Assembly (NCBI GenBank): GCA_965203905.1
Contig: CBDBDQ010000005.1
Location: 1,792,001-1,856,000 of the forward strand
DNA: 64,000 nt
Direction: 5' to 3'
Source of the DNA: Spirochaetia bacterium
GTDB taxonomy: Bacteria > Spirochaetota > Spirochaetia > SZUA-6 > Bin103
Below the pieces are notes generated by a model. That model had not been told where the DNA came from. It saw nothing but the letters and a program-made list of their open reading frames with translations, and ran no database searches. How positions within the stretch are numbered: position 1 is the stretch's first letter; every line of letters begins with the position of its first letter. The translations under genes were made by a program, and so were the position numbers. Positions 7,710 through 56,111 of the stretch are shown here, one piece after another.

Positions 7710-7811
7710 AGCGCCCCGAAACCCGCCGCCTCGCGGCGTCGCTTCGGCCCAGACCCGCCTTACGTACGGAGTCCTGTCGGACCTGCCGCTGGCGCCCGTC
7801 CGACAGACTCC
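7710..7811. repeat. ~100-nt structured intergenic repeat, copy 1
   Basis: Closely similar to 53164-53264; hairpins CGCCGC-ctc-GCGGCG and GGAGTC(C)TGTCGGA...TCCGACAGACTCC. Confidence 0.85.
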
Positions 7812-33515: not shown

Positions 33516-33659
33516 GCCGCGCGGGCACGGGCGCACGGGAGGCAGGGCTGGGCCGAAAGCTCGCCGGTAGGCGACGGTTTCGGGGCGCTGGCCGCAGCCG
33601 GAAAAGAGAGGGTAGGCGCGTTGTGCGTTTCGGAGTACACTGTGTATCGGAACTTGCGC

Positions 33660-52016: not shown

Positions 52017-52832
52017 ATGAGGCGCTCGTTCCCGATGTGGCGCGAGCGGCTGCGCAGCATCATCTTCCTGGCCGACACCCGCGCCGGCAGGCTGTTCGAC
52101 GTGGTCCTGATCGTGGCGATCATCGCCAGCGTCCTGGTGGTGCTGTTGGAGAGCTCGGTCACCACCGGGGAGGCCTGGTCCGTGCCGCTGCGGGCGGCGG
52201 AGTGGACGTTCACCTCGATCTTCCTGCTGGAGTACCTGGCGCGCCTGATAGCGGTTCGGCAGCCGCTGCGCTACATGGTCAGCTTCTTCGGGATCATCGA
52301 CCTGTTGGCGGTGCTGCCCGCGTTCCTCGGACTGATTCTGCCCGGCAGCCACTACCTGACGGTGCTGCGGCTGTTGCGCGTGTTGCGCGTCTTCCGCGTG
52401 CTGAAGCTGGTGCCCTACATGGCGGAGGCCGCGGTGATCATGGGTGCCCTGCGTGCCAGCCGGCGCAAGATCACCGTGTTCCTGTTCAGCGTGCTGATCA
52501 TCGCCGTGGTCCTGGGTTCGTTGATCTACGTGATCGAGGGAGAGGAGAACGGCTTCACCAGTATCCCCCAGAGCATGTACTGGACCATCGTGACCCTCAC
52601 CACCGTGGGCTATGGCGACCTCACCCCGCGCACCGGACTGGGCCAGGCGCTCGCCGCCGTGATCATGATCATGGGGTACGGCATCATCGCCGTGCCCACC
52701 GGCCTGGTCACTGCCCAGGTGGTCTCCGAGACCATGCACGCCCGTGACCGGCGGCGCTGTCGGGCATGCGGCAGAGCGGGCCATGAGCGCGATGCCGACT
52801 TCTGCCGGCACTGCGGGGAACAGCTGCGCTGA
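52017..52832 (+). CDS. Voltage-gated potassium channel (6TM) with C-terminal Zn ribbon
   Basis: S4 RLLRVLRVFRVLK, filter TTVGYGD, CRAC...CRHC. Confidence 0.92.
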   Translation: MRRSFPMWRERLRSIIFLADTRAGRLFDVVLIVAIIASVLVVLLESSVTTGEAWSVPLRAAEWTFTSIFLLEYLARLIAVRQPLRYMVSFFGIIDLLAVLPAFLGLILPGSHYLTVLRLLRVLRVFRVLKLVPYMAEAAVIMGALRASRRKITVFLFSVLIIAVVLGSLIYVIEGEENGFTSIPQSMYWTIVTLTTVGYGDLTPRTGLGQALAAVIMIMGYGIIAVPTGLVTAQVVSETMHARDRRRCRACGRAGHERDADFCRHCGEQLR

Positions 52833-52881
52833 GCATGGAAGGCGTGCCCGCGCACGGTCTCCCAACGGTCTCCCTACCCCC

Positions 52882-52910
52882 GTGACGCGGGCGCCGGCAT
52901 TCGGTATAGT
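52882..52910 (+). promoter_or_regulatory. Putative sigma70 promoter of the histone gene
   Basis: GTGACG-17 nt-TATAGT. Confidence 0.5.
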
Positions 52911-52962
52911 CGCTCCGTGTCGTTTCCGAGGGAACCATCTTTAAGATAAGGAGCGTAGCCAA

Positions 52963-53142
52963 ATGGCCGAGATCCTGATTGTAACTTCCAAGGTCAAGAA
53001 CTACATCAAAGAGGCGGGGATGAACACGGCGGCCTCGGTAGCCGAGGCACTCTCAGAGAAGGTGCGCCAGGTGTGCGACGAGGCGATGGAGAACGCCCGC
53101 AAGGCGAAGCGCAAGACGGTTCGCGACACCGACATAACCTGA
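52963..53142 (+). CDS. Bacterial histone-fold protein (Bd0055/HBb-like), 59 aa
   Basis: Below the ORF-track cutoff. MAEILIVTSKVKNYIKEAGMNTAASVAEALSEKVRQVCDEAMENARKAKRKTVRDTDIT; AAGGAG RBS; RKTxxxxD histone L2 motif. Confidence 0.9.
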   Translation: MAEILIVTSKVKNYIKEAGMNTAASVAEALSEKVRQVCDEAMENARKAKRKTVRDTDIT

Positions 53143-53163
53143 GCCGCCTTCAGGTTCCGGTGT

Positions 53164-53264
53164 AGCGCCCCGAGACCGCCGCCTCGCGGCGTCGCTTTCG
53201 GCCCAGCCCTGCCTACCGTACGGAGTCCTGTCGATCTGCCGCTGGCGCCAATCCGGCAGACTCC
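53164..53264. repeat. ~100-nt structured intergenic repeat, copy 2
   Basis: Closely similar to 7710-7811, in the same orientation. Confidence 0.85.
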
Positions 53265-54622
53265 TAACGGTCGGCCTCGATGGCGGGGTCGAGCGCCTCG
53301 CGTGCTTCCGCCGCTACCGCCAGCGAGCCGGTGGCGAGCACCAGGTCGGTGCCGTCGGCAGTGGCCAGCAGACGGTGCAGGGTGTCCGCCACCGGCAGCG
53401 AGCTGGCATGCGCGGCGATCCCCGCCGCCTGCAGCGCGGCGGCCAGGTCGGCGGCCGCCATGGCTCGCGGATGCCGCGAGCGAACTACGGTGAGCGAGTT
53501 CGCGAGTGGGCGCAGCAGGCGCAGCGTTGCCACGCCGTTGTGACCCTCGAGGCCTCCGACCAGTGCCTGCAGCCGAGGTCGTGGCCGCAGCCGCAGCAAC
53601 TCGGCAACCAGTTGCCCCATGGCACGCGGGCAGTGGGCACCGTCGGCCACTACCGTCACCGGCCGCCGCTGCAACACCTCGAAGCGGGCCGGCCAGGTGA
53701 CCCGTTCCAGCCCGCCGCGGATGGCAGCCGTGGTCAGCGGGACGCCCAGATCGATCAGCCGTTCCGCGGCGACCAGCGCCACGACCCCGTTCTCGCGCTG
53801 GGCGGCGCCGCGCAACGGCAACGCCACCCGGTAGGCGTCGTGGCGCCCGCGCCAGTGCAGTTGCTGGTGCGCTTGCGCCAGCGGGTCGCCGGCACGCGGG
53901 GACGGCTGGGGTGCCACCCGGTCGAGGAGGGCGCCCTGGCGTTGCGCGGCACGCGCCAGCACGGCGTGCACGGAGGGAATCTGCGGCGCCACCACGACCG
54001 GCACCCCCGGTTTAATGATCCCGGCCTTGGCGCGGGCGATGTCGAGCAGGGTGGTGCCGAGCGCCGGAATGTGATCGCGGCTGATATTTGTGATCACGGA
54101 CAGCAGCGGCTGCACTATATTGGTGATGTCGTCGCGGCCGCCGACGAACGCCTCGACCACCTGGTAGGCCGCCCCCGCCTCGCGGAAGTGATGCAGCGCC
54201 ATTGCCGTCAACAGCTCGAGCGTAGTGACCTGACCATCCGGGCCGGAGAATTCGGGGTGGTGCGCCACCGCCTGCGCTGCCGGCCACACCTGGGCGAACA
54301 GGGAGGCGAACTGCTGGCGGCCGATCGGCGTCAGGCCGAGTCGGATCCGTTCGACCATGGCGTGGAGGTGGGGCGAGGTGAACAGCCCGACGCGCAGCCC
54401 GGCACGGTCCAGAATCGAGGCGATCATGGCCGCGGTGGAGCCCTTGCCGTTGGTGCCGGCGACGTGGATGGTGGGAACCGCCAGGTGCGGGTTTCCCAGT
54501 TGCCGCAGCAGGACGCGCATGCGTGGCGCACGGCTGCGCCGGCCATGAGTCTTGCCGCGGCGCAGGTCGGTGAGGCCGATGAGGCGTTCGAGGGCCGCCT
54601 CGTAGGCAGCGTGCTCGCCCAC
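53264..54622 (-). CDS. folC: Folylpolyglutamate synthase/dihydrofolate synthase
   Basis: HVAGTNGKGST, FTSPHL, WPARFE, DGAH, TGSL; GTG start assumed. Confidence 0.9.
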   Translation of the reverse strand: MGEHAAYEAALERLIGLTDLRRGKTHGRRSRAPRMRVLLRQLGNPHLAVPTIHVAGTNGKGSTAAMIASILDRAGLRVGLFTSPHLHAMVERIRLGLTPIGRQQFASLFAQVWPAAQAVAHHPEFSGPDGQVTTLELLTAMALHHFREAGAAYQVVEAFVGGRDDITNIVQPLLSVITNISRDHIPALGTTLLDIARAKAGIIKPGVPVVVAPQIPSVHAVLARAAQRQGALLDRVAPQPSPRAGDPLAQAHQQLHWRGRHDAYRVALPLRGAAQRENGVVALVAAERLIDLGVPLTTAAIRGGLERVTWPARFEVLQRRPVTVVADGAHCPRAMGQLVAELLRLRPRPRLQALVGGLEGHNGVATLRLLRPLANSLTVVRSRHPRAMAAADLAAALQAAGIAAHASSLPVADTLHRLLATADGTDLVLATGSLAVAAEAREALDPAIEADR

Positions 54623-54681
54623 GGCGCGACGGTAACCGGCGCCGAATACCGTGTAAAGGCGATGCCTTGCAGAGGGCCACG

Positions 54682-55482
54682 GTGAACGGCGCACGCAAGG
54701 ACCGGGACTGGTTGGCGGGCACCAGCTACCCCGGTCGCGGCCTCGCGGTCGGCTGCACGGCGGACGGCGGCGCCAGCGTGCAACTGTACTGGATCATGGG
54801 CCGCAGCAGCAGCAGCCGCAACCGGCGTTTCGTCGCCGCCGGGAGCGGTGCGGTGCAGGTGGTGGTGGCCGACCCCGGCGCCGGCACGCCGGGCGGCGAT
54901 CCCAGCCTCATCCTGTACCGGGCGCTGGCGGTCGCCCAGGCGGGGGCGAAGGACAGCGCGGCGTCAGGCCCGCAGCCCGCCCGCGCCGTGCACGTGGTGG
55001 CCAACGGCGACCAGACCGACACCATTGCCGCGGGGCTGGCCGCCGGGGACTCCTTTGCCGCCGCCTTCGCACGCCGTGACGTGGAGCCGGACCCGCCCCA
55101 CTACACGCCGCGCATCGCCGGCATGGCGGCAGCCGGCGGGGCGGGCGGCTATGAACTGGCGATCATCAAGACCGCCGCCGGCGACCCGCGCCAGGTGAGT
55201 TTCCAGCACTTCGTATACCGGAGCCCCTGTCGCGGGTGGGGGCACTGCATCACCACCTACGAGGGCGACGGCTCCCCGCTGCCGTCGTTCCAGGGCGAGC
55301 CGTTTCTCCTGCCGCTGGCCGCTACCCCGCGGGAGGCGGTGCGGGAGCTGTGGGGCCTGCTCGATCCCGACAACCGCGTCGCCGCGCTGGCCAAGTTCGT
55401 CGACCGCACCACGGGAGCGGTGAGCATGGAGATCGTCAACCGTCACGCGGGCGGCGGCCAGCGTTCGGGAGGCGCGTGCTGA
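54682..55482 (+). CDS. IMP cyclohydrolase (PurO-like, Ntn fold)
   Basis: YPGRG, YWIMGRSSSSRNR, NGDQTD, EPDPPHYTPRI. Confidence 0.85.
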   Translation: MNGARKDRDWLAGTSYPGRGLAVGCTADGGASVQLYWIMGRSSSSRNRRFVAAGSGAVQVVVADPGAGTPGGDPSLILYRALAVAQAGAKDSAASGPQPARAVHVVANGDQTDTIAAGLAAGDSFAAAFARRDVEPDPPHYTPRIAGMAAAGGAGGYELAIIKTAAGDPRQVSFQHFVYRSPCRGWGHCITTYEGDGSPLPSFQGEPFLLPLAATPREAVRELWGLLDPDNRVAALAKFVDRTTGAVSMEIVNRHAGGGQRSGGAC

Positions 55483-56111
55483 TGGGGGGATGCCGCCGCT
55501 GCGACTGGTGCGCCGGGGACGAGCTGATGCTGGCATACCACGACACCGAGTGGGGCACGCCGATTTGGGACGACGACCGCCGGCAGTTCGAGTTCCTGGT
55601 GCTGGAAGGGGCGCAGGCGGGACTGAGTTGGCGTACCATCCTGCACAAGCGCACCGGCTATCGGCGCGCGTACCGCAACTTCGAGGTCGCGCGGGTGGCA
55701 CGCTACGGTGAGGCCGAGCGGGCGGCGCTGCTGGCGGACCCGGGCATCGTGCGCAACCGGCTGAAGGTGACGGCGTCGATCGGCAACGCCCGCGCCTTTC
55801 TCGCCGTGCAGGAGCAGTTCGGCAGCTTCTGCTCCTATCTGTGGAGCTTCGTCGACGGCCGCCCCGTGGTGGGCGGGTGGCGCACCGGCGGCGAGGTTCC
55901 GGCCGAGACCGAGTTGTCGCGGCGGGTGAGCCGAGACCTCAAGGCACGCGGCTTTCGTTTCGTGGGCCCCACCATCGTGTACTCCCATCTGCAGGCGGTG
56001 GGAGTCGTCAACGACCACGTGGTCGACTGCTTTCGCCATGCCGAGCTGACCGCTGCCGCCGGGGCCCGAACGCCTGCTACCAATACCAACACAGCAAGGA
56101 ATCAAATATGA
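55482..56111 (+). CDS. tag: DNA-3-methyladenine glycosylase I
   Basis: RCDW, YHDTEWG, LEGAQAGLSW, NDH...C. Confidence 0.95.
   Translation: MGGCRRCDWCAGDELMLAYHDTEWGTPIWDDDRRQFEFLVLEGAQAGLSWRTILHKRTGYRRAYRNFEVARVARYGEAERAALLADPGIVRNRLKVTASIGNARAFLAVQEQFGSFCSYLWSFVDGRPVVGGWRTGGEVPAETELSRRVSRDLKARGFRFVGPTIVYSHLQAVGVVNDHVVDCFRHAELTAAAGARTPATNTNTARNQI

Follow-up and report, generated by a model that had tools for sequence, protein, structure and literature searches.

A short conserved gene of a Spirochaetia lineage, predicted to encode an alpha3-truncated histone of the Bd0055 kind

Histones are rare in bacteria. Hocher et al. report the histone fold in 1.86% of 18,343 genomes, and in-depth studies exist for just two bacterial histones, that of a predator and that of a Leptospira. 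Does a 59-codon open reading frame (ORF) of a Spirochaetia bacterium encode another one, to which subclass would the protein belong, and what could it do in the cell? The ORF lies in the window, by which we mean the whole stretch of 64,000 nucleotides of contig CBDBDQ010000005.1 that was analysed. It runs on the forward strand from an ATG at 52963 to a TGA at 53140–53142. Its coordinates and translation match exactly those of a preliminary description of this DNA, in which an unannotated histone gene had been proposed. The features that the argument needs are as follows; positions are those of the window, and the elements of the model are given in residues of the protein.

52882..52910, + strand: promoter-like pair, with a -35-like GTGACG (52882–52887), a 17-nt spacer and a -10-like TATAGT (52905–52910), from a consensus scan
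52948..52953, + strand: Shine-Dalgarno sequence AAGGAG, 9 nt 5' of the ATG, from direct reading and alignment
52963..53142, + strand: coding sequence of the 59-aa alpha3-truncated histone, from translation, family models, selection and the predicted fold and dimer
within 52963..53142, + strand: elements of the AF2 model, namely alpha1 8–17, L1 18–24, alpha2 25–47, L2 48–54 and alpha3 55–57

Family, predicted fold and predicted dimer

We compared the protein with family models and with chains of known structure. It passed the Pfam model PF00808 (CBFD_NFYB_HMF) with 28.3 bits at a cut-off of 21.4 (E 2.2e-6), and the same model matches 29 of the 44 members of the family alignment at E<=0.01. The score with the NCBIfam model archaea_histone was 29.2 bits, below the cut-off of 50, which would explain why an annotation pipeline leaves the histone unnamed. 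Using phmmer against PDB chains, we found Bd0055 (HBb) of Bdellovibrio as the top match over residues 1–58 (8fvx_A, E 6.4e-11; 8cmp_A, 7.2e-11). The likeness to Bd0055 had been noted in the preliminary description, and these scores bear it out. The next match was HLp of Leptospira perolatii (9qt0_A, 1.1e-8), and archaeal histones and NF-YB followed with E of 0.03–1. A profile built from 44 diverse singlets found HBb in the PDB with E of 5.2e-26 and 2.5e-25 and HLp with 3.7e-15, and all 11 of its matches at E<=0.001 were histones. HBb is the best solved match both by the single sequence and by the profile.

In the 44 sequences R50, K51, T52 and D57 are invariant, and R50 and D57 form the RD clamp within RKTVRDTD. 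Among the lysines of alpha1, conservation reaches at least 90% at K10 and K12, and K16 does not vary in the genus alignment. We matched these three by eye to the lysine positions 11, 13 and 17 of the HBb-like logo of Schwab et al. (2024). The best-scoring cluster representatives were mostly proteins of 126–274 aa, each of which matches the 59-aa singlet twice at 41–55% identity. They look like doublet (pseudodimeric) members of the bacterial-dimer type.

With the 44-row alignment, AF2 gave a model with a pLDDT of 91.9 and a pTM of 0.68, in which helices span residues 8–17, 25–47 and 55–57. The model made with a shallow genus-level alignment of 23 rows was poor (pLDDT 66.2), and alpha2 passed into alpha3 without a break. 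Foldseek returned five matches at E<=0.001, all of them HLp or HBb chains (TMq 0.88–0.92, rmsd 0.9–1.4 A, identity 44–50%). The HTkC, Asgard, eukaryotic and HMf histones appeared at lower ranks. The predicted order of elements is helix, loop, long helix, loop and helix, and the top Foldseek matches are all histones. Structure prediction, which had been suggested as a check of the histone assignment, thus points to a histone fold.

The homodimer prediction had a score of 0.89, and the best of three controls had 0.00. The partner pLDDT was at least 94, and the runs agreed in at least 98% of the contacts. The mark for a dimer is reached by 20 of 30 proteins whose structures were solved as homo-pairs and by 1 of 23 whose structures were solved as single chains, counts that are only rough here because a custom alignment was used. 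In the predicted dimer, residues 21–23 of L1 contact residues 52–53 in L2 of the other chain, and residue 34 meets residue 34 at the crossing of the alpha2 helices. The prediction supports a head-to-tail handshake homodimer with L1–L2 pairing. A dimer model had also been suggested earlier for comparison with the Bd0055-type fold, and the handshake predicted here is in agreement with that fold. It may be that the pass reflects the likeness to HBb dimers that are already solved. The sequence, the profile, the predicted fold and the predicted dimer agree with each other, and the assignment of the protein to the Bd0055-like singlet histones is supported.

Bacterial dimer or face-to-face tetramer

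In the classification of Schwab et al. (2024), alpha3-truncated histones are defined by an alpha3 of 3–4 residues, and their alpha2 is described as 4–5 residues shorter than that of nucleosomal histones. They comprise face-to-face (FtF) tetramers, 'bacterial dimers', of which HBb is the type, and some smaller groups. The bacterial-dimer category is defined by sequence, and its members are characterised in the same work as lacking the arginine and the asparagine that mediate the FtF dimer–dimer contact. According to the HLp paper, bacterial FtF histones that form tetramers conserve R49, N53 and R55. In our model alpha2 has 23 residues (25–47), alpha3 consists of residues 55–57, and the chain ends at residue 59, two residues after the aspartate of the RD clamp. 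The suggestion that alpha3 is minimal is therefore matched by a predicted helix of three residues.

In the gap-free phmmer alignment, the FtF tetramer positions R49/N53/R55 fall on N44/A48/R50 of the spirochaete protein, so that one of the three residues is present. N44 and A48 are conserved within the genus. Because two of the three residues of tetrameric FtF histones are missing, we place the protein with the 'bacterial dimer' (HBb/Bd0055-like) alpha3-truncated histones, to which it would belong by its sequence. The L2–alpha3 segment (TVRDTD) is nearer to HLp than to HBb, and the putative dimer-only assignment therefore rests on the missing tetramer residues.

HBb of Bdellovibrio bacteriovorus (PDB 8fvx, 8cmp, 9ezz, 9f0e) is the type member of the bacterial dimers. 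The spirochaete protein resembles it in length (59 against about 60 aa) and is 47–50% identical to it over the whole chain. The two share the N-terminal MAE-L-V-TSKVK, the MNT L1 loop, the RKTV L2 loop and the RD clamp, as well as the truncated alpha3, the absence of tails, the predicted dimer handshake and the lack of the FtF tetramer residues. The spirochaete histone also coexists with HU: it is single-copy in the genome, which has one HU-family gene. A search of this genome by protein or by PF00808 at E<=1 found no second histone-fold gene. Unlike in HBb, L1 is one residue shorter, and the HBb DNA contacts S24 and R57 are changed to A23 and T56, with an arginine two positions earlier (R54), as in HLp. 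The host also differs, being a spirochaete of non-predatory type with an 8-Mb genome of 66% G+C and not a Bdellovibrio.

HLp of Leptospira perolatii (PDB 9qt0-2) is a face-to-face tetrameric bacterial histone and represents the other subclass. Could the spirochaete protein be of this type, so that two dimers would form a tetramer able to wrap or bridge some 60 bp of DNA? HLp is from the same phylum, has the same alpha3-truncated fold and is the first-ranked Foldseek match (TMq 0.88, rmsd 0.9 A, 44% identity), with a phmmer E of 1.1e-8. R54 and T56 in L2–alpha3 are common to the protein and HLp and are not found in HBb. In addition, FtF histones are reported by Schwab et al. (2024) and in the HLp paper to be common in Spirochaetota. 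However, only the RD-clamp arginine (R50) is present out of R49/N53/R55, and the residues that replace R49 and N53 of the hydrogen-bond network of the HLp tetramer, N44 and A48, are those conserved in the genus. The scores favour HBb over HLp by sequence (6e-11 against 1e-8) and by profile (5e-26 against 4e-15), and the 59-aa histone differs from HLp in having no N-terminal tail. In the PDB table, the HLp chain 9qt0_A goes under the name DUF1931, given by its depositors; the Pfam family of this name matches 2 of the 44 sequences in the family alignment but not the 59-aa histone. We therefore consider an FtF tetramer unlikely. Singlet histones of both Bdellovibrio and Leptospira had been cited in the preliminary description; the likeness to the Bdellovibrio histone is borne out, but the Leptospira histone is of a different subclass, the tetrameric FtF one, whose signature the protein lacks.

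A bacterial dimer would also be distinct from the archaeal nucleosomal histones HMfB and HMfA. They share with the protein the histone fold, the RKT...D motif of L2 and the RD clamp (profile E 4e-4 to 6e-4, TMq 0.76), but they have a full alpha3 helix and 68–69 aa, against three residues and 59 aa here. The full-length alpha3 of the HMfB-like four-helix-bundle tetramer interface is absent, with 3 residues in the model. According to Hocher et al. and to the HBb bending study, the tetramerisation residues are absent in this class of histone, and hypernucleosomes are therefore unexpected.

Upstream signals, DNA contacts and proposed function

A consensus scan found GTGACG-17-TATAGT as the sole sigma-70-like pair in 52600–53500, and shuffled sequences gave 0.1 on average. 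We aligned the upstream DNA of 11 genus-level loci. TGACGC occurs in 9 of the 11, and TATAGT is found unchanged in 7 and with a single mismatch in another 3; the intergenic DNA around the boxes diverges among these loci. The GGAG core of the Shine-Dalgarno sequence (AAGGAG or AGGAGG) is in the same place in 11 of 11 orthologous loci. The promoter-like boxes and the AAGGAG ribosome-binding site noted in the preliminary description are thus present, and they are conserved across the genus. This conservation fits a histone gene that forms a single-gene unit with its own putative promoter. No intrinsic terminator was found by the consensus scan in 52600–53500, and Rfam had no match at E<=1 in 52700–53400.

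The order of genes is kept in seven syntenic loci from named genomes (L002–L008): murA, an ion channel, the histone, folC on the opposite strand, a 271-aa ORF and tag. In all seven, no other shared gene is as well conserved as the histone (for example, 88% against 62–75% in L005), and its conservation exceeds that of the adjacent murA and folC. Beyond the housekeeping neighbours, no conserved partner gene of the histone was found in the syntenic loci. The putative ion-channel gene 5' of the histone is syntenic with it across the genus. In the window it occupies 52017–52832 (+), looks ion-channel-like by eye and ends in a short CxxC...CxxC tail. Two further ORFs on the same strand, 54667–55482 (+, 271 aa) and 55236–56111 (+, 291 aa), share about 250 nt in the list of ORFs. 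Probably, the start of the second one is over-extended in high-GC DNA.

We used RNA-library contigs and codon usage as proxies of expression. Logan contigs from RNA libraries of three studies/runs, belonging to relatives 90–99% alike, cover the histone ORF, with spans of 52945–53147 (X19), 52963–53146 (X20), and 52919–53068 and 53044–53165 (X21); the neighbouring genes are covered too, the strand, ends and level are not given, and DNA carry-over is possible. In run X23 there was no piece over the histone ORF among those listed. The codon adaptation index of the histone is at the 40.5th percentile of the gene-like ORFs, and translational codon bias is nearly absent from the genome. By the likelihood ratio of ribosomal against background usage it is at the 91st percentile of size-matched background pieces, where the ribosomal set itself barely differs from the background. 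The ribosomal/EF set comprised 17 genes with 3520 codons, and there were 4620 gene-like ORFs.

The residues that contact DNA in the characterised relatives were traced in the spirochaete protein. By the phmmer alignment, 8 of the 10 important DNA contacts of HBb are identical (T8, S9, K10, K12, K16, N21, K51, T52), and the other two are the changes at A23 and T56 described above. All five main DNA-binding contributors of HLp are identical (S9, K10, K12, K16, R54), and R54 sits where HLp has the strongest of them. Hocher et al. describe HBb as highly abundant and nucleoid-localised, with deletion attempts that failed. According to the HBb paper, it binds genome-wide, and bacterial histones often coexist with nucleoid-associated proteins. 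Its binding mode is disputed in print. Tethered particle motion (TPM) and molecular dynamics are reported to show that HBb bends DNA, and bending is also described by Schwab et al. (2024). Hocher et al. describe an end-on sheath on straight DNA, an alternative seen in one crystal form. Both HBb and HLp are reported to bind DNA without sequence specificity or to chromatinise it.

Most likely, two chains of the spirochaete protein would pair head-to-tail in the classical handshake of histones, joined through the long alpha2 helices. A paired L1–L2 loop surface would then be exposed at either end of the dimer, with the start of alpha1 alongside. By homology, these surfaces would contact the phosphate backbone at minor grooves with no sequence specificity, and T8-S9-K10, K12, K16, N21, K51-T52 and R54 are the candidate contact residues. 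As a nucleoid-associated protein, the dimer may bend or coat DNA, with no nucleosome-like wrapping. A conserved promoter of its own would drive the gene as a single-gene unit, and the histone would coexist with the product of the one HU gene. We infer the DNA binding, the binding mode, the abundance, the essentiality and the chromatin role by homology only. Taken as a whole, a nucleoid-associated histone of the bacterial-dimer subclass, which bends or coats DNA and is expressed from its own promoter, is the best explanation of the locus, and we assign to it a probability of about 0.8.

It is also conceivable that the protein is a specialised histone-fold protein of low abundance, such as a regulator or a partner protein, with no general role in the nucleoid. 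Global genome organisation, as Schwab et al. warn, need not be the role of every histone-fold protein in prokaryotes. Neither the RNA contigs nor the codon usage give a signal of abundance, and the HU present in the genome could be the main nucleoid protein. However, the DNA-contact residues are largely kept (8/10 for HBb and 5/5 for HLp), and the characterised relatives HBb and HLp bind DNA unspecifically or chromatinise it. The gene is a solitary one, preceded by a conserved promoter-like site of its own and by a strong Shine-Dalgarno sequence, it has no conserved partner gene beyond the housekeeping neighbours, and it is better conserved than murA and folC. A specialised role is thus improbable in our estimate, and the nucleoid-associated bacterial dimer remains the preferred reading.

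We also put forward, quite tentatively, a more far-reaching version of it. The histone might be a principal nucleoid protein of its family of large-genome, high-GC Spirochaetia, where it is universal and single-copy and better conserved than murA, and it might carry a hybrid surface for DNA binding, in which an HBb-like dimer-only body is combined with the HLp-like Arg/Thr of L2–alpha3. If this doubtful proposal were true, the geometry of DNA binding could differ from that of both solved bacterial histones.

Conservation of the gene, its distribution and an adjacent repeat

The protein collection contains 48 proteins of 40–73 aa that are 75–100% identical to the 59-aa histone, and the 59-aa histone itself is a called gene there. 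The median dN/dS was 0.092 over 55 pairs formed from 11 genus-level orthologues, pairs which are not independent. Judging by these substitution ratios, the histone gene is under purifying selection. Its G+C by codon position is 0.54/0.39/0.85, and the background median of GC3 in the gene-like ORFs of the genome is 0.87. Long spurious ORFs are plentiful in high-GC genomes (here, a 5-kb stretch is overlapped by 38 ORFs of 40 aa or more) and, according to the earlier reader, the annotation track holds no gene at this place, but the reading of 52963..53142 as a chance ORF and no gene has next to no chance of being right and is refuted by the low dN/dS (0.09), the 48 conserved homologues, the passed Pfam histone model, the confident AF2 model, the conserved start, Shine-Dalgarno sequence and promoter-like boxes, and the gene-typical G+C by codon position.

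The assembly of the window has 7.99 Mb in 5 contigs and a G+C content of 66.3%. Among species-representative genomes, the closest loci are in metagenome-assembled genomes (MAGs) of Spirochaetales, Spirochaetia and Spirochaetaceae, at 75–97% identity. The guess of a high-GC host of Spirochaetales type, made from the letters of the window, is thus supported. Loci at 42–61% identity belong to Bdellovibrionota, Myxococcota, Chlamydiota, Planctomycetota and others. Near-identical DNA of the family appears in sponge and coral metagenome runs.

A survey of the lineage, also suggested earlier, was carried out at three levels. With the genus profile, exactly one match was found in each of 24 of 24 genomes of the family (10/10 and 13/13 in its two genera, plus the window's own). 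In the order, 34 of 92 genomes matched, and the distribution across its families is patchy: 23/23, 0/2, 0/2, 2/21, 0/25, 3/5, 1/8 and 4/5. For the class, which was sampled evenly, the wider 44-sequence profile matched 63 of 301 genomes and 28 of 135 genera; a gene missing from an incomplete genome need not have been lost.

We also built a tree of 62 rows and 60 columns. It resolves the genus clade with 99/99, and 13 of the 15 Spirochaetota rows are grouped weakly (64/81). With this weak grouping, either vertical descent or transfer may account for the history at depth. In the genus of the window, the identity of the histone is 75–100% and the synteny is kept. In the sister genus (L071, from G014) the histone is about 59% identical, and none of the neighbour genes of the window lies within 1.5 kb of it. 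Either the histone diverged fast and its surroundings were rearranged, or it was acquired separately; L071 is on a long branch of the tree, which is compatible with both.

The subclass, the fold and the occurrence in Spirochaetia are already published. Schwab et al. (2024) list the bacterial-dimer subclass in 'Spirochaetota (class Spirochaetia)', and the HBb paper names Spirochaetia among the classes with histone homologues. Since the class is already listed for the subclass by Schwab et al. (2024), the known range of histones is unchanged. A full-text search of the literature returned these papers and unrelated ones, and found none on the histone of this Spirochaetia lineage, which supplementary tables may list. 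Notable here are mainly the complete retention in one family and the mixed HBb/HLp signature. With 24 of 24 genomes of one spirochaete family, the locus is a clear example of a histone retained throughout a lineage. The protein is small and easily expressed, and with its intermediate signature it could help to settle how dimer-only histones bind DNA, on which the two HBb studies differ.

A dispersed repeat lies directly 3' of the histone stop (53163–53269). It is about 105 nt long, has sharp ends, contains hairpins and abuts the folC stop (53264–53266). Other copies in the window are at about 7710–7809 and 33532–33589. We found 41 matches to the repeat on both strands of the genome, and a second search gave 37 HSPs, 18 of them of at least 90 nt. 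The copies have a clear consensus, with copy-specific paired changes in the stems. The repeat has no Rfam match, and the 130-nt stretch that holds it (53143–53272) folds no better than shuffled sequences (z -1.0). The contigs of relatives join across the repeat, from 53165 to 53268 in X21, and from 53146 to 53213 with 16 other letters between in X20. The site is as if empty in these relatives, and the repeat therefore looks like a small mobile (MITE- or REP-like) element.
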